Shown piece by piece: positions 1-8,763 of a stretch of DNA of 55,181 nucleotides. The stretch spans positions 1 to 55,181 of the forward strand of contig JASFYY010000067.1 of NCBI GenBank assembly GCA_045046875.1, in the 5' to 3' direction. The notes under the pieces are model-generated. The model searched no databases. It was not told the origin of the DNA and was given only the letters and a program-made list of their open reading frames with translations. Within the stretch, counting starts at the first letter, position 1, and each line of letters starts with the position of its first letter. Both the position numbers and the translations under genes were made by a program. Origin of the DNA: Verrucomicrobiota bacterium. Its GTDB lineage: Bacteria; Verrucomicrobiota; Verrucomicrobiia; Verrucomicrobiales; DEV007.

Positions 1-660
1 CAACTGGATCAAGAGGATCGCGTGAGCGAGAATCAGATTTCAAAGTTCTGGCATGACGCACTCAAGCCTTACGGCGCTCAAGCGAAGCACTGGGAGCATT
101 CGGAGGACCCCTTGGACTCCGTGATGAGCTACCTACCCGCCAACTTTAAAAATAAAAAAAATGAAGCCTACCGATGGAAGACGCAGCCGTGGTTTGTACA
201 AACCTTTAGGACGAAAACTGGAATGTGGCTCGTTTGCCTAGATGGGAATCCAAATAAATTTGAAAGTGAGGCCTATCAAGATCTCGCGGCGTTACATTCT
301 GCGATGGTGAAATATTTGGAGAAGAGTGACGGTATTTGGCCTCACCCCGACCAAGATGCCTACGAGAGTGAGCTGAACTACTCGAACTTCTGGATCGAGA
401 GTCTCAAGCCATACGGAGCCGAGAAAAAACATTGGGTGCACTCGAGCAAGCCTTCGGCCTTTGGAATGGATTATATGCCTTCTATCTTTGATGGTAAGAA
501 GAACACTGCAAACCGGTGGGAGAAACAGCCGTGGTTCATACCGAGGTTCAAAGAACAGAATGGAATGTGGGTTGTCCGTCGAAATGGGGAGCCGCGAATT
601 TGGAAATCTGGGACAGTTCCGGCAGGGCAACCTGATGCGAAATTGCAGGAAAACGACTGA
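1..660 (+). CDS. Cassette 1: hypothetical protein with tandem ~110-aa Trp-rich repeat (5'-truncated)
   Basis: Frame 1 is open from base 1. Two copies of FW..LKPYGA..KHW.HS..P....Y.P..F..KKN.A.RW..QPWF...F....GMW.V...G.P. The stop is immediately followed by attC1. Confidence 0.8.
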   Translation, partial: QLDQEDRVSENQISKFWHDALKPYGAQAKHWEHSEDPLDSVMSYLPANFKNKKNEAYRWKTQPWFVQTFRTKTGMWLVCLDGNPNKFESEAYQDLAALHSAMVKYLEKSDGIWPHPDQDAYESELNYSNFWIESLKPYGAEKKHWVHSSKPSAFGMDYMPSIFDGKKNTANRWEKQPWFIPRFKEQNGMWVVRRNGEPRIWKSGTVPAGQPDAKLQEND

Positions 661-790
661 GCGAACAAGAGAGAGCAGGTAATTCCTTCCCGCGCATTAG
701 TTCTCTTGCCTTTTGGCTTCGATTACATCACGATTTTATTTAAAGTGACAGGGCTTCGTTCCAAGAATGACCTGTCTCGAAACGTTCTGC
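660..790 (+). repeat. attC site 1
   Basis: AGCGAAC...GTTCTGC. Arms GAGA(G)CAGGTAATTC / GAATGACCTGTCTC with an extra G, and a 5-nt spacer before GTT. Confidence 0.8.
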
Positions 791-796
791 CCCAAA

Positions 797-1276
797 ATGA
801 ATTTACTAAATGGAAAAACGAAATATCTCGCGGTCGGTTCATGGGCGCTTTTGGTCGTGGGATGTATATGTTTTTTCACCACTGAAGTTATATGGTCAGT
901 TTTATTTATTCTTGGGGGCTTTTGGTTACGTACTGCACTGCCTACAAAAAACTATGACCCAGATAGAAAATCAAATCTATCCCAATCGCTCAAGTATTTC
1001 GGGGTCTTTTTTTTAGTAAGCGGTATATGTCAGACGCCTCTAATTAAGAGCGCGATGCATCAGGCGTTTAATGAAATTAGGGAAGCTTCCTTTCCTTTGC
1101 CTGCGCTATATATCATTGGAGGATTGGGGTGTTTGATTTCGAGGGTGATATTTTTAGATTGTAAATATTTAAAATCCGTTCCAGAAGCAGATATAGAGCG
1201 ATACTACAAATTAAATAACACAGAACAAAACGCAGCAGAGCAACCCGCTCCTCCTCCTCAGTCAAAATCTAAATGA
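797..1276 (+). CDS. Cassette 2: hypothetical membrane protein
   Basis: ORF with ~4 hydrophobic segments. ATG 797 follows R'. The C-terminus (EQNAAEQPAPPPQSKSK) is encoded by the left arm of attC2. Confidence 0.75.
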   Translation: MNLLNGKTKYLAVGSWALLVVGCICFFTTEVIWSVLFILGGFWLRTALPTKNYDPDRKSNLSQSLKYFGVFFLVSGICQTPLIKSAMHQAFNEIREASFPLPALYIIGGLGCLISRVIFLDCKYLKSVPEADIERYYKLNNTEQNAAEQPAPPPQSKSK

Positions 1277-1346
1277 AAACTTTAACCCTAAACTTGAACA
1301 CGAAAGCTCGCTGCCAGTAGCGGGTTGCCTGTGCTCGACGTTCGCT
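1220..1346 (+). repeat. attC site 2
   Basis: ACAGAAC...GTTCGCT. Arms GCA(G)CAG(A)GCAACCCGCT / AGCGGGTTGCCTGTGC. Close paralogue of attC10. Confidence 0.9.
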
Positions 1347-1352
1347 GGGAAA

Positions 1353-1778
1353 ATGAGCCAAGTTCTTAACATTCGATTCTCCAAAGACGCAGTCGAAATG
1401 TTGGAAGAGTTTATAGACGGCTGGAATACGATTGGAACCAGTAAACTTATAAACGAGCATTTTTATGAACTGAATTACGACGATCAGAGCGACAGCCTTT
1501 CTATTGGACTTGAAGAAGATTCAAGTCTCCTCATTCAAGGCTATACGACTGATATCAGCTGGGGTTATATCGAGCAATTTTCTAAATCTAACAATGGAGA
1601 GATTTCATGCGAAGGAGCTCCGTTGGCTGATGAGCGCGAACTCACTGAATCAAAGCTATCCTTTTTCGGAGCCATAATTTCGATTGGCGGTTTAATTGTG
1701 CTTGTTGTTTTATGGCCATTCATGCTCATCTATGCTTTATTAAGGTTACTTTTCACGATCGTAATAAGCCGCAAATGA
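1353..1778 (+). CDS. Cassette 3: hypothetical protein, acidic N-domain plus C-terminal membrane anchor
   Basis: 141-aa ORF between attC2 and attC3 with a hydrophobic C-terminus. Confidence 0.75.
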   Translation: MSQVLNIRFSKDAVEMLEEFIDGWNTIGTSKLINEHFYELNYDDQSDSLSIGLEEDSSLLIQGYTTDISWGYIEQFSKSNNGEISCEGAPLADERELTESKLSFFGAIISIGGLIVLVVLWPFMLIYALLRLLFTIVISRK

Positions 1779-1791
1779 TCCTCAGAAAAAC

Positions 1792-1917
1792 AGCGAATAA
1801 AACGCTGCTCACCAAGCACTGAGCCTCCTCGTTATTAAAAATCAACATGACTTTAAACACCAACATCTTCGTTCACACTCGTTCCCAGCTCAGTGCTGGG
1901 TGAGCTCGACGTTCGAC
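1792..1917 (+). repeat. attC site 3 (R'' ends AAT instead of AAC)
   Basis: AGCGAAT...GTTCGAC. Arms GCTCACCAAGCACTGAGC / GCTCAGTGCTGGGTGAGC with a TCGAC spacer. Confidence 0.85.
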
Positions 1918-1924
1918 AAAAAAA

Positions 1925-2335
1925 ATGAACCGTAAATTAAAATTTTTCGTAACTCTTATCCTCTTTATCACAACGCCCTACTTAAAGTCGGAAGAAAAAC
2001 TCGTAGATTTCAAAATCCCAATCACTCAGCAGCTTGCTAAAGAGCTCCAGAAAAGATGCGGAAAGCTTCAACTCCCTTTGAGAGAAGTTGTGATGGGTGT
2101 GGGAATTATATTTCATCAAGGATCCTCTATCCAAATAGATAGGGAAAATTCTGTAATTTCAGGCCGTCTTGCGCATTCTGAAGCAATGCTTGTATTAGCT
2201 CTCAGTGCGCATTTTGCCTCCTCGTCGGAGAAGGAAATTAAATCCTATTTTGATGATATCGACGAATCTCATTGCTTCGACCCTAAAAAAACAACGACGG
2301 AAAAGGTCGAACAAAAGTCAGTACCGAATCCCTGA
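1925..2335 (+). CDS. Cassette 4: hypothetical exported protein
   Basis: Signal-peptide-like N-terminus. The C-terminus (VEQKSVPNP) runs into attC4. Confidence 0.75.
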   Translation: MNRKLKFFVTLILFITTPYLKSEEKLVDFKIPITQQLAKELQKRCGKLQLPLREVVMGVGIIFHQGSSIQIDRENSVISGRLAHSEAMLVLALSAHFASSSEKEIKSYFDDIDESHCFDPKKTTTEKVEQKSVPNP

Positions 2336-2431
2336 GCCGCCTCGTAGTTATGATTCACTTTGATTTTAACCATCAAACGCTTCGTCAACGCGCGCTCCCA
2401 CTCAGGGATGCGGTGTGACTCGACGTTATGT
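2306..2431 (+). repeat. attC site 4
   Basis: GTCGAAC...GTTATGT. Arms AGTCA(G)TACCGAATCCCTGAG / CTCAGGGATGCGGTGTGACT. Close paralogue of attC8. Confidence 0.9.
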
Positions 2432-2838
2432 GCAGAAAATCACATCTTCTGTTTTTTGCTGTTTTATTTTTCATAACAGCTTGTAAAAGCATCACGTCAG
2501 GAGGAAAAAATGATTTCTCTGACTTTATCCAGGATTCTGACACGTTTACCGTTGTGATCTATGATGGTGGACATATCACTAACAGGTATCCACTATTGAA
2601 ATCGAGTGTCGAACACCGAAAGCTTAAGGAATGGTTGAAAAGCAATGAATCCGGATGGGAAAAATCAGGATTTAGAAGCCGTTATACCACTTACGCGCCT
2701 GACATACTTATTTCATCAGGACTCAAAAAAATTAATTTTATCAAAGGCGGTGTGATCATATTTATTCCGAACGTCGGCCAATTTGAACAAGCGACCGAAG
2801 AAAGTGATTTAGTATTCTTGAGACGTCGAAACACATAA
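2428..2838 (+). CDS. Cassette 5: putative lipoprotein
   Basis: Hydrophobic leader with lipobox-like ITAC. ATG lies inside the R' box and the stop TAA lies inside the R'' box of attC5. Confidence 0.75.
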   Translation: MCRKSHLLFFAVLFFITACKSITSGGKNDFSDFIQDSDTFTVVIYDGGHITNRYPLLKSSVEHRKLKEWLKSNESGWEKSGFRSRYTTYAPDILISSGLKKINFIKGGVIIFIPNVGQFEQATEESDLVFLRRRNT

Positions 2839-2946
2839 CAAATCGTGGCTGCGAACAGGCTACCCGCTGTGAGTTGAAAATTCATACATTAACCTTGAAC
2901 ATAAAGCGCGTTCTCAGGTAGACTGTCGTAGCACTCAAACGTAGGA
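2833..2946 (+). repeat. attC site 5 (R' = GTAGGA, one T short)
   Basis: ACATAAC... Arms GTG(G)CTGCGA(A)CAGGCTACC / GGTAGACTGTCGTAGCAC. Confidence 0.8.
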
Positions 2947-2956
2947 GGAAGGGAAA

Positions 2957-3637
2957 ATGATTTTTAATATTGTCGTTATTGTTCCATTTTTGATCACTCT
3001 ATTCTTTTGGCTCAGGGGGCTGTGGAAGCAGTGTATAAGTGATGTCATTGTCTCTCTTATTACATTGGGCGTCGCAATCGGAGCATATTTTTATGCATAC
3101 CAATATATTTCCTTTGTCGGTATTCCGTGGTCTTTTCTTTTGATTTTGGCCATTGGAGGAGGGGTAGTTGTTGCCCTAAAGCGTAAGGAAGGCGGCGGTA
3201 AAGCCTATGTTCTAGCACCCATCATTGCTGTGTGTTTAAGCGGAGTAATGTTTCTAGGTGAACAGAAATGGAATGCCTCTGAAAATTCCATCCTTGTTAT
3301 AACCCCATATCGTGCTGCCGGGACTTGGGTTTTTGATGATCCAGGAGCAGGTCTTAAAGCAGAGCCCTTTATTTCAGGCATGCCAGAAATAATTGATGAG
3401 TTAATTGCAGAGGCAAAGGTTGCTGATGCAAATAAAGGTTTCAGGATGATATTTTCCAGTCAACCTTTTCCTAACCACCAATCAGAAATAACTTGGGTTC
3501 GTCCTGAATCAGGTGGCAACTGGTATTATTCGGAAGAGTATAAGCTCGAAGGTTGGCTTTGCCCTGCTTTGTTCAAATATTTCAGGAGAGCTCCTCGGAT
3601 AATATATGTGAAAGCTGAGGGGATAAAAGATTCCTAA
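2957..3637 (+). CDS. Cassette 6: membrane protein fused to DUF6717-like domain
   Basis: N-terminal ~4 TM segments. C-domain NSILVITPY..GTWVFDD..GL..EPF..G....ID...EGWLCPALFKYF resembles DUF6717 (from memory). GGAGG RBS upstream. Confidence 0.75.
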   Translation: MIFNIVVIVPFLITLFFWLRGLWKQCISDVIVSLITLGVAIGAYFYAYQYISFVGIPWSFLLILAIGGGVVVALKRKEGGGKAYVLAPIIAVCLSGVMFLGEQKWNASENSILVITPYRAAGTWVFDDPGAGLKAEPFISGMPEIIDELIAEAKVADANKGFRMIFSSQPFPNHQSEITWVRPESGGNWYYSEEYKLEGWLCPALFKYFRRAPRIIYVKAEGIKDS

Positions 3638-3692
3638 CAAGAGCTTGCATGTGACGTCGCATGCGCGCCGCACATGAAGATTGACGTTAGAC
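3632..3692 (+). repeat. attC site 6 (short, 61 bp, classical-looking)
   Basis: TCCTAAC...GTTAGAC. Arms CTT(G)CATGTG(A)CG / CGCACATGAAG. Confidence 0.9.
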
Positions 3693-3713
3693 CCCAAAAA
3701 TAAAACTACTGTA

Positions 3714-4103
3714 ATGCGCTGCATCATCTTTTTAACTATTGTATTGACAATAACATTGATCTCGACCTCCGCTGAGACAGTGCGTGAGCGACTGGCCTCA
3801 GATCCTAAATTCCCCATCTATACTGTGGTTTTCGGTATTACCGTGGTGACTAAGGGCAAATTTGACAGCTTCAGTATATCCAAAATCGTTGATCCCAAAT
3901 CCGGAACCACTGACTCGGTTAAAATTCCTATTTCAAAGCAATTCGTGGCAGCTACTCGAAAGAAACTTATCGAGATGAAGGTATACGAGCCCAGACTCAA
4001 GGATGGGAAGCCAGTGGAGTTTTATACTTATGTATATTATTCTCCAGACTATCCAAAGGTTGTGATAATGGATTTGGACGTCTCCATTGAAGATCAACCG
4101 TAA
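3714..4103 (+). CDS. Cassette 7: exported protein, possibly TonB C-terminal-like fold
   Basis: Signal peptide and YEPRLKDGKPV motif reminiscent of TonB_C. ATG 3714 preferred over TTG 3681, which lies in attC6. Confidence 0.65.
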   Translation: MRCIIFLTIVLTITLISTSAETVRERLASDPKFPIYTVVFGITVVTKGKFDSFSISKIVDPKSGTTDSVKIPISKQFVAATRKKLIEMKVYEPRLKDGKPVEFYTYVYYSPDYPKVVIMDLDVSIEDQP

Positions 4104-4104
4104 G

Positions 4105-4210
4105 GTCTAACAAGTAGGTAGAGGAAACGGCGATCACTAGCCTTGACTCTGTGAAGCCAATCGTAATATGATTGGCAAGAGGCAAATCCTCTGCCCGTTT
4201 TCAGTTGTCA
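4105..4210 (+). repeat. attC site 7 (degenerate right arm)
   Basis: GTCTAAC matches the cassette's GTTAGAC. GGTAGAGGA/TCCTCTGCC can pair. Candidate R' GTTGTCA at 4204 has irregular spacing. Confidence 0.5.
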
Positions 4211-4249
4211 GCCCATTTTAACTTTGATACTATGGAAGCAACGCTAACA

Positions 4250-4375
4250 GTCCAACAATAGTCCGCGCCGAATCCCTGAGCCGTAATGTAGTTATGATTC
4301 ACTCTAATTTTAACCATCAACTTTTGCGTCAATGCGTGCTCCCACTCAGGGATGCGGGGTGACTTGACGTTTGCA
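4250..4375 (+). repeat. attC site 8
   Basis: GTCCAAC...GTTTGCA. Arms CCGAATCCCTGAG / CTCAGGGATGCGG. Aligns end to end with attC4. Confidence 0.88.
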
Positions 4376-4379
4376 ATAA

Positions 4380-5060
4380 ATGCTTCGTAAAGTAACACTG
4401 GCCCTAAATGCGATCGTGGTCGTTTTGTCTCTCACTCTCTTTTGCTACACGTTTTTCGCAAGGCCGCATTTGACCGAGCACACGAGGGCATTCGTTACGG
4501 AAAAGACGCTTTCGTATTCCAAGCCGCTTGTGGATCTGATGCGAGCAGGTATCGATTCTCCACTCTCTCAGAAGTTCATTTCAGAAGAGCTTCGTTCGCT
4601 AATTGAAGAGGAGCTTAAGCTCTACGATTCAAATTCCGCAGAATATGTGACGGCGCTGACCTCAGCACGAGCTGAGTCATTAGGCACAGGTAAGGTCGCC
4701 AAGTTTAAAGAAAAGATTCGAAGCTATTACCAATCGACTCTGAGCTCATTGGTTTGCGACCTCAGAATATTTTCAGGTTCCAATATTGTGGCAGGCTTCT
4801 TCGCGATGTGGCTCCTACTGACCAAGGGATTCAGGCGGAGTGACAAGGTGGCCGCTTTCTCATTCGTGGTTTTTGCGGCTGTAGCATACAGCACCTATAG
4901 CTACATTGACGGAGTTTCATTTTTACGGATTTTGCTCAAGAGCCACCTCGGATGGTGGTATCCTGCTGGTATTGTTATAATGATTTTGGCGCTGGTCCTC
5001 GAGTATGGCCTAAACAAGGAAACAGATGCAGAGCAAGGCGTCGATCCTCTTCCTCTATGA
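4380..5060 (+). CDS. Cassette 9: hypothetical membrane protein
   Basis: N-terminal TM segment plus 3 C-terminal TM segments. The C-terminus (AEQGVDPLPL) is encoded in attC9. Confidence 0.8.
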   Translation: MLRKVTLALNAIVVVLSLTLFCYTFFARPHLTEHTRAFVTEKTLSYSKPLVDLMRAGIDSPLSQKFISEELRSLIEEELKLYDSNSAEYVTALTSARAESLGTGKVAKFKEKIRSYYQSTLSSLVCDLRIFSGSNIVAGFFAMWLLLTKGFRRSDKVAAFSFVVFAAVAYSTYSYIDGVSFLRILLKSHLGWWYPAGIVIMILALVLEYGLNKETDAEQGVDPLPL

Positions 5061-5088
5061 GGATGGCTCGGACGTTGATACGTTTGCG
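5028..5088 (+). repeat. attC site 9 (short, degenerate; R'' ends AGC)
   Basis: GCAGAGC...GTTTGCG. GGCGTC/GACGTT and ATCCTC/GAGGAT pairing, 5-nt spacer before GTT. Confidence 0.6.
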
Positions 5089-5095
5089 TTAATAA

Positions 5096-5785
5096 ATGAA
5101 AGTTGCTCTCAAACCATTTACATCAAAGCAAACTCAAGAACTTGAGGGGTATATTGCTACTTGGGTCAAAATCGTGCGTATAGCAGCGTATGCCGTTTTA
5201 GTTGTTTTTACCGGTCTTATTTTCAGAGGGTTTTCACAAATCCTTTTTACCAAAACCTCGAATACACTCACCGATATTTTTTGGGTCTTACCAACCGCAG
5301 CGTTTGCATTATATATATGGATTCGTTCGGGTAAATGGACAGGAGGCAGGCAATTTCATGATGCCGTCAAAAAAGATATTGCAGGAGGGAACGCGCGTGT
5401 CTTAAGCGTCAAAATTACTGATGCGATTTTAATTGAAGAACAAGAAGATGATGGCCCTTCATACATTATTTTAAGCACAGAAGGAGAAACCGTTTTTTTC
5501 TCTGGTCAGTATTTAGATAGACTACAGGCGAAAGGCTTCCCTTGGTCTGAGATTGAAATTGTTGAGGCTCCGGAATCGAAAGTGTTTTTTGGAATTAAAA
5601 AGAAAGGAGCTCGTATAAATCCTTCAGTGAATCGCATGCCTCTCGAATATGAGGAAGCAAAATCAATGGGAGCGTTTGATAATGATTATCAAGTTCTTAA
5701 TGTGAAATTCGAAACCTTGAAGCGCAAAGCACAACAAAACGCAGTAGAGCAATCCTCTACTAGCCTTCGGTCGAAACCCAAATGA
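5096..5785 (+). CDS. Cassette 10: hypothetical membrane protein
   Basis: Two TM segments plus a soluble domain. The C-terminus (AQQNAVEQSSTSLRSKPK) is encoded in attC10. Confidence 0.8.
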   Translation: MKVALKPFTSKQTQELEGYIATWVKIVRIAAYAVLVVFTGLIFRGFSQILFTKTSNTLTDIFWVLPTAAFALYIWIRSGKWTGGRQFHDAVKKDIAGGNARVLSVKITDAILIEEQEDDGPSYIILSTEGETVFFSGQYLDRLQAKGFPWSEIEIVEAPESKVFFGIKKKGARINPSVNRMPLEYEEAKSMGAFDNDYQVLNVKFETLKRKAQQNAVEQSSTSLRSKPK

Positions 5786-5856
5786 AAACTTTAACCAATT
5801 AACCTCTTCGCCAACACTCGCCCTCGCTAGGGGGTTGCCTGTGCTCGACGTGTTGC
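5729..5856 (+). repeat. attC site 10 (terminal; R' reads GTGTTGC)
   Basis: GCACAAC... Arms GCA(G)TAG(A)GCAATCCTCTA / TAGGGGGTTGCCTGTGC with a TCGAC spacer. Paralogue of attC2. Confidence 0.85.
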
Positions 5857-6076
5857 TCTCAGCATCAGAGCATCAGAGGTTCGAAAACTGTGAGTCAAAT
5901 TCCTTGCGGAACTCGACCTTTACCAATGCGAGGACTTTGGCTCCTTGATTCATTCGGCTTTTCAGGTTGCCTGTCTGACTTGGTTCAACCCTTATTGAGC
6001 TTTCGTCGGAAAAGGAGCCGAAGGCAGACGGGAGTCAATGTCCGATTTCCTGTTACTTACCTGCATGGAAGGTGAG

Positions 6077-8612: not shown

Positions 8613-8671
8613 GGAAGGAGGTAGAATTCAGGATTCGGAATCTCGAGAGTTTGATTTTGGATCCTGGCCAG

Positions 8672-8746
8672 GGCAAGCGGAGCGCTCGCCCTACAAAATG
8701 TAGGTTTTGAGGGACTGTGAATTGTAGGGCGGGCGCTTCGCCTGCC
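8672..8746. repeat. GTAG-headed REP-like palindrome doublet
   Basis: GGCAAGCGGAGCGCTCGCCCTAC (8672-8694) and GTAGGGCGGGCGCTTCGCCTGCC (8724-8746) in inverted orientation between convergent genes. Confidence 0.75.
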
Positions 8747-8763
8747 TTGCAGGGCATGTTTTT

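Follow-up and report, generated by a model that had tools for sequence, protein, structure and literature searches.

Mini-open reading frames in the loop of long attC sites of Verrucomicrobiales integron cassettes and their possible role in cassette expression

RESULTS

The cassette array and its recombination sites

The stretch of DNA analyzed here, which we call the window, comprises 55,181 nt of contig JASFYY010000067.1 from a bacterium of the Verrucomicrobiota. Positions 660–5855 of the window are a Verrucomicrobiales integron cassette array of the ordinary kind, in which ten attC-like recombination sites lie between co-oriented hypothetical genes; the array begins at the contig end and is closed by the convergent gene pgsA. 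Our analysis suggests that the long attC sites (about 126–128 bp) probably carry a translated mini-open reading frame (mini-ORF) in their variable loop, which helps the expression of the next cassette. The features of the array are listed below.

22–660, + strand: cassette 1 ORF, start uncertain (contig end), TGA stop adjoining R'' of attC1, without Pfam match
660–790, + strand: attC1, long, loop without ATG, crossover between G and TT at 784
797–1276, + strand: cassette 2 ORF, final 17 codons (1223–1276) within attC2
1220–1346, + strand: attC2, R'' ACAGAAC, R' GTTCGCT
1273–1320, + strand: attC2 mini-ORF, 15 codons, ATGA overlap with the tail stop, end 19 nt before the crossover
1353–1778, + strand: cassette 3 ORF, stop 13 nt before R''
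1775–1822, + strand: 15-codon ORF overlapping the cassette 3 stop and running into the 5' arm, cassette-specific
1792–1917, + strand: attC3, R'' variant AAT
1847–1903, + strand: attC3 mini-ORF, 18 codons, end 7 nt before the crossover
1925–2335, + strand: cassette 4 ORF, tail 2309–2335 within attC4
2306–2431, + strand: attC4
2350–2418, + strand: attC4 mini-ORF, 22 codons, end 6 nt before the crossover
2428–2838, + strand: cassette 5 ORF, TAA stop within R''
2833–2947, + strand: attC5, R' reads GTAG
2874–2921, + strand: attC5 15-codon frame, still open behind an in-frame TTG
2957–3637, + strand: cassette 6 ORF, DUF6717, Shine–Dalgarno (SD)-like AGGAGG upstream (2943–2948), TAA stop within R''
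3632–3692, + strand: attC6, short type
3714–4103, + strand: cassette 7 ORF
4105–4249, + strand: degenerate attC7 and gene-less stretch with sigma-70-like sites at 4143–4172 and 4205–4233 (consensus matches only)
4250–4375, + strand: attC8, 82% identity to attC4
4294–4362, + strand: attC8 mini-ORF, 22 codons
4380–5060, + strand: cassette 9 ORF, hydrophobic, probably membrane, tail 5031–5060 in attC9
5024–5087, + strand: attC9, short, degenerate, boundaries approximate
5096–5785, + strand: cassette 10 ORF, tail 5732–5785 within attC10
5729–5855, + strand: attC10, final site, R' reads GTG where GTT is expected, no cassette behind, convergent pgsA next
5782–5802, + strand: attC10 mini-ORF, 6 codons, shortened by a 1-nt insertion

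The sites of the window have the R''-L''-L'-R' arrangement of a bottom-strand hairpin with extrahelical bases and a crossover between G and TT, and among 40 long sites we observed compensatory changes in 13 of the 17 predicted bottom-strand pairs; by this predicted pairing the sites fold as attC hairpins. A scan for the arms alone recovers 7 of the 10 window sites, while attC7, attC9 and the R' of attC10 are degenerate. The cassette ends are complementary, with a match at the fourth R base in 182 of 207 cassettes, and single co-oriented genes lie between the sites. On a single contig of a relative (run X1), position 781 is joined to 3684 with 5 shared letters, spanning the crossovers at 784 and 3686, so that cassette 1 is joined to cassette 7 and cassette 6 lies ahead of cassette 1. 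From this rearrangement at both crossovers we conclude that the sites recombine where predicted.

We found no integron integrase in the examined part of the window, which begins at a contig end. Two matches above the cut-off of the integron-integrase family TIGR02249 lie on other contigs of the genome (C117, 19327–20271, and C27, 44699–45247), one with an internal TAG and the other cut by the contig end; the orientation of the latter could lead into the array of the window. In the rest of the genome, the arm-only scan located long sites of this kind on another eight contigs. Small clusters of attC occur on many contigs, often at their ends (C11, C19, C25, C43, C54, C57, C76, C103, C117 and C159); on C117 the integrase is followed downstream by an attC on its own strand, and on C43 one site is inverted.

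Open reading frames in the attC loop

A covariance model of the long attC gave matches in 115 of 134 genomes of the family and in 14 of 151 genomes of a phylum sample, own genome included. Regions were taken around 115 of the listed match contigs and near integrases, and were mostly chosen via model matches. Sites were called from the arms alone, ignoring the loop, which resulted in 369 calls (361 unique) from 55 genomes. The loop tests are based on 304 sites with 112–118 nt between AAC and GTT and without N, grouped into 63 families by clustering at 70% identity, while 57 unique sites were dropped by the length and N filters. As a control for the model-based choice the count was repeated on 51 sites found without the covariance model.

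We observed an ATG at +36 to +56 in 211 of the 304 long sites, compared to 23% in dinucleotide shuffles and 38% on the reverse strand. It mostly lies 40–51 nt behind the AAC of R'', in differing contexts, and its frame runs for a median of 17 codons down the 3' arm. Up to the 3' arm, this frame is free of stops in 97% of the cases, the two other frames in 49% and 66%, and the ATG frame of shuffled loops in 74 ± 3%. The initial annotation had proposed such a comparison of homologous sites with shuffled controls, and both ATG frequency and open frame exceed chance. The result holds after weighting by family (ATG 56% vs 24 ± 4% in shuffles, maximum 36% in 100 shuffles; open frames 97, 51 and 50%), with one site per family (ATG in 35.3 of 63; frames open in 33.9, 18.0 and 17.8), after removal of the three largest families (108, 54 and 53 of 111 open), in the 51 sites found without the model (ATG in 39; 38, 18 and 15 open) and in 27 long sites outside the family set (ATG in 12; 12, 6 and 9 open). 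Moreover, whichever of the three phases to the crossover the ATG has, it is the ATG frame that is open (98% of 106, 97% of 88 and 88% of 17 sites), which is therefore not one inherited frame. Several families without ATG have a GTG or TTG at a similar place with the frame open. No excess of antisense ORFs was seen, the reverse strand giving 16–18% vs 15% in shuffles. Five betaproteobacterial sites (118–121 nt) had no loop ATG, but they are too few to define the range. Among the genomes taken from other classes, one (G181) gave no arm-scan calls.

For analysis of sequence change we used 13 families with 185 sites. The ATG columns vary in 3–5% compared to 24–37% in the five columns upstream, which makes the ATG the most conserved triplet around. 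In-frame stop gains amount to 15 where 47.7 are expected, while the other frames show 46 (32.5 expected) and 37 (36.1 expected); counting each site once, the in-frame value is 10 vs 20.8 expected (P = 0.007), with 16 vs 18.4 and 18 vs 16.2 in the other frames. Indels occur in 2 of 185 sites within the ORF vs 15 of 185 upstream. In contrast, the three codon positions vary alike (0.157, 0.162 and 0.171). From the conserved ATG, the depletion of stops and indels and the missing codon-position signal, the mini-ORFs look maintained for their translation, and the peptide does not look selected.

In the window itself all six mini-ORF peptides of the initial annotation are encoded at the positions listed above. 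Of the sites in the window, attC1 has a loop without ATG, and attC7 and attC9 are degenerate. The ORFs of attC4 and attC8 are indeed of equal length, 22 codons, but as the two sites are 82% identical copies they count as one observation, not two. Likewise, attC2 and attC10 belong to one family. The ATG is present in 18 of 19 members of the attC2 family, and the 6-codon ORF of attC10 is a frameshifted copy of the 15-codon family ORF, cut by a 1-nt insertion; this insertion is missing from most matching contigs in two runs, which may be other family copies. Compared with its copy on contig C117, attC5 has lost 11 nt between repeated TGAAA motifs, and with them the A of the ATG.

Promoter-like loops

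The sigma-70 consensus comprises a −35 box TTGAC, a 17-nt spacer and a −10 box TAnnnT. In three related families we found TTGACT, exactly 17 nt and TAnnnT on the sense strand in 36 of 37 sites; TTGACT, TA and the final T are 100% conserved in these promoter-type families, the middle 63–83%. With a loop identity of 62–70% the three families probably share one origin. A sigma-70-like pattern, which we defined after seeing the data, occurs in 47 of 304 loops from 21 genomes, whereas shuffles give 1.65 (at most 4 in 60 shuffles) and the bottom strand gives 1; 41 of the 47 loops have no ATG. The promoter-like families are numbers 25, 22, 24 and 61, the last reading TTGAAC, 16 nt and TAnnnT, and they are nearly exclusive with ATG. 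Upstream regions of host genes show a mild peak at spacers of 16–18 nt. A general sigma-70 scan of window positions 600–6000 gave 9 sites vs 10.5 expected, and a stricter family-weighted scan of the attC loops gave 5.4% vs 2.7 ± 1.8% on the top and 3.3% vs 2.7% on the bottom strand. Promoters are therefore not in excess in general; the signal comes from just a few families and depends on TAnnnT. None of the intact sites in the window is of the promoter type. The sigma-70-like sites of the attC7 stretch, which precede cassette 9, may be what is left of a promoter, although the scan of positions 600–6000 as a whole did not exceed chance. A similar half-site follows a cassette 9 homologue in L314.

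These loops also bear on an alternative view, in which the conservation of ATG or ATGA has a cause at the DNA level (a site for a protein, a need of the recombining strand to fold, or the remains of a −35 box) and the frame is open by descent from a shared ancestor. All long sites share their loop ancestry, an A follows the ATG in 150 of 165 cases, and one ATG family reads ATGACT where the promoter-like families read TTGACT. We nevertheless consider this view rather unlikely, as the depletion of stops is specific to the ATG frame in three phases, the ATG lies at +40 to +51 in differing contexts, a −10 box follows ATG hexamers in 0.7% vs a background of 2.6%, and the inner loop stem exceeds shuffles weakly (5.04 vs 4.49 pairs).

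Geometry of translation

The mini-ORFs end between −24 and 0 of the crossover, within the 3' arm, in 189 of 211 sites. In predicted RNA folds the 3' arm is paired while the ATG region is mostly unpaired. As the mini-ORFs stop in the paired 3' arm, translating them would open the stem. The next cassette mostly starts 13–17 nt behind the crossover and the median distance from the mini-ORF stop to the next ATG is 29 nt, with overlaps in 4 of 163 cases; the 9 nt of attC4 and the 17 nt of attC8 are at the short end of these gaps. According to the abstract of PMC10666635, a gap of about 20 nt almost abolishes termination–reinitiation, and the usual geometry here is neither an overlap nor a gap well under 20 nt. 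On the upstream side, tail and mini-ORF overlap by ATGA, a real coupling geometry, at attC2 and attC10 and in 35 of the 92 cassettes that read through in frame 0; most others do not have this overlap.

The initial annotation had combined these elements into a ribosome relay that melts the hairpin. The melting part agrees with the stops in the 3' arm, the hand-over to the next cassette does not agree with the gaps. In its strict form, one ribosome would pass from gene to tail, mini-ORF and next cassette, which would be otherwise untranslatable for want of a ribosome binding site (RBS). We regard this as unlikely. A relay model has been published (in part of PMC8876359), and besides the ATGA overlaps just described the phase of the ATG fits such an overlap in 110 of 211 sites. 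However, apart from the long gaps, coupling within attC families is no more common behind read-through genes than behind genes stopping earlier, each of the 15 indels found before the ATG changes the frame of the tail, and the host itself is SD-scarce.

For the latter point we assumed the anti-SD sequence, as no 16S 3' end was recognized in the assembly. An SD was found in 2% of 241 host genes, and a second count gave 9.5% vs 8.2% at a control position (n = 1749); genome-wide, start regions are G-poor and A-rich without SD enrichment. Akkermansia is listed as SD-scarce in a part of PMC10783764. In such a host, cassette starts without SD are normal, and the idea that attC translation rescues RBS-less cassettes falls away. 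The cassette starts lie 3–28 nt past the crossover as annotated (13, 13, 14, 3, 16, 28, 11 and about 15–24 nt), but they are not all without SD: cassette 6 is preceded by AGGAGG (2943–2948), which arose because the R' of attC5 lost one T. The start of cassette 5 lies 3 nt past the crossover, within R'.

Read-through tails

The R'' motif begins with GAAC in 234, TAAC in 85 and CAAC in 47 of the 369 calls. Considering the 361 cassettes, 142 genes stop before R'', 52 stop at the TAA of R'', 140 read into the site and 27 cassettes are without a called gene. When TAAC sites are left out, the read-through frames are distributed 100/27/7, with frame 0, the usual TAA frame, leading in 28 of 39 genomes, compared to random frames (53/43/46) for genes stopping earlier; other Verrucomicrobiota show 18/6/0. 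Tails arise because R'' is mostly GAAC or CAAC instead of TAAC, so that genes in the usual stop frame run to the next stop. Such translated tails, with a median of 15 residues, stop by +54 in 89 of 92 cases vs 69 of 99, and have a polar composition of A, Q, E, P, D and G in common. In the window, the four tails of the initial annotation end inside attC as described, at 1276, 2335, 5060 and 5785. Cassettes with GAAC have the complementary GTTC start in 121 of 129 cases, which indicates that GAAC is not simply a freshly mutated stop. An all-against-all comparison of cassette proteins gave too few full-length pairs of the same gene with TAAC and GAAC ends, two metagenome scans found no locus with the same gene in both states, and the arm scan called no attC at 13 genomic homologues of cassette 9. 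In the short attC sites of 48–49 nt of L288–L293 (G214) the frame-0 stop lies, as judged by eye, only in the 3' arm, so that the hairpin would be traversed in full by the read-through tail itself.

A function of the tails or mini-peptides themselves, as the appended peptide tag of the initial annotation or as a small regulator, is very unlikely: the frame-0 preference and the shared polar composition would fit, but the ratio of non-synonymous to synonymous polymorphism (pN/pS) of tail codons is the same whether they are translated or not (0.78 vs 0.72 and 0.89), the mini-ORFs have no codon-position signal, homologues of cassette 9 have after their conserved core no tail or many unrelated ones including various EQ tails, 26 homologues of cassette 10 are without its tail, and the attC9 tail has lost 6 nt in a close relative. 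By these comparisons the tails look like short, polar, tolerated by-products that are kept short. The recurring polar C-terminal tails of EQ type on hypothetical proteins of Verrucomicrobia are, on this view, attC sequence, a quick marker of cassette origin, and should not be taken as a protein motif.

Other features of the window

A Pfam scan of 9 cassette ORFs gave DUF6717 as the sole match. The cassette 1 protein (22–660) has an internal two-fold repeat, with a direct repeat at 219–251 and 561–593. The N-terminus of cassette 5 (2428–2500) resembles, by eye, a lipoprotein signal ending in Cys. At 8669–8749, after gnd, lies an inverted repeat of 28 nt, 86% complementary, that is similar to a repetitive extragenic palindrome or a terminator.

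DISCUSSION

Expression of the cassettes

Based on these observations we propose the following mechanism. Ribosomes would start in the loop, either de novo or, where a read-through tail ends in an ATGA overlap, by re-initiation. As they move into the 3' arm, they would open the mRNA stem and keep the gap of about 130 nt occupied. The opened stem would free the A-rich, SD-less start of whichever cassette comes next, and ribosomes occupying the gap would limit Rho polarity or decay, so that the act of translation counts and the peptide does not. Opening of the hairpin or covering of the mRNA appears likelier to us than a hand-over of ribosomes. The genome contains Rho-like genes at C89, 51332–52543, and C4, 34035–35129, one of which is above the family cut-off. 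In class 1 arrays an untranslated stretch before attC lowers downstream mRNA, as stated in part of PMC11511950.

Several points weigh against this interpretation. The sites have a common ancestry and pooled counts therefore overstate significance, while the site-wise test is modest. No ATG is present in 93 of 304 long sites, and 25 have neither an ATG nor a promoter-like pattern nor an open GTG or TTG frame. The mini-ORF is intact in 117 of 130 sites with a gene following within 45 nt and in 43 of 49 without (P = 0.79), and a terminal-site test was null as well. Independence from the following gene is expected if cassettes reshuffle, but it lends no support to a downstream benefit. An A at −3 is found in 13% of mini-ORF starts vs 39% of host genes, so de novo initiation may be weak. 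In addition, the frame-0 bias may have arisen in either of two ways: both cassette ends changed together from an ancestral TAA, or the cassettes were built this way. Finally, according to a section of PMC11511950, for most of the 10 class 1 cassettes tested downstream expression was hardly altered when attC was deleted.

Beyond the mini-ORFs, it is conceivable, though tentative, that the long attC loop of Verrucomicrobia is a standing expression module that travels with its cassette and acts on the next one, restarting either translation, through an ATG with an open frame (about 70%), or transcription, through a sigma-70 promoter (about 15%). The two states may differ by a single base (ATGACT vs TTGACT). 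If this were true, reshuffling would rewire operon-like expression along scattered arrays without a Pc promoter, and it would explain conserved long attC loops that recombination does not need. Two standing questions in the field are by what means cassettes distant from Pc are expressed and what keeps the long loops of some attC sites conserved; with a majority of loops having an ATG and open frame and a minority having a promoter-like sequence at the same place, both become testable by single-base reporter mutants.

Comparison with known systems

In titles and abstracts, subscription papers and supplements excluded, we found no report of lineage-wide attC mini-ORFs or attC-loop promoters in Verrucomicrobia. 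Promoters have been described in gene-less cassettes, and one bridging an attC, in parts of bioRxiv 10.1101/2023.11.21.568050 and PMC2945992. The promoter-like loops would resemble these as internal array promoters driving downstream cassettes; unlike them, the predicted pattern does not extend beyond the attC loop and keeps the same position in 36 of the 37 sites that make up three related families. Mycobacterial interspersed repetitive units are, by a passage of PMC12548453, likewise mobile repeats, and a short ORF in them lets translation continue through the insert; their ORFs overlap the next start by −4, whereas the element described here is a recombination site with a median gap of 29 nt. 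With ORF-11, ORF-17 and ORF-18 of attI1 (PMC8876359, section 3.1) the mini-ORFs have in common that they end tens of nt before the cassette start and, probably, that the translation event counts and not the peptide; these attI1 ORFs, as presented there, carry an SD of their own and act for the first cassette alone, while the mini-ORFs lie in the attC of each cassette and have no SD.

The closest case is a short ORF in an attC of class 1 integrons, whose translation prevents the stem-loop and raises expression of the next cassette (Jacquier et al. 2009, as summarized in PMC8876359, section 3.2). Short ORFs in attC are called anecdotal in a passage of PMC11511950, and ORFs in attC have so far been treated as anecdotes. 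The mini-ORFs are similar to the Jacquier type in being short ORFs in attC that cross a hairpin arm (189 of 211 end between −24 and 0). They differ in that they are known from sequence alone, belong to an SD-scarce host, are often fed by a read-through tail and, unlike the class 1 case study, represent the majority state of the long attC sites of a lineage (211 of 304) with sequence signs of selection. Taken together, the concept of a relay is known, and what is new is the lineage-wide selection signal together with a promoter-like alternative state.

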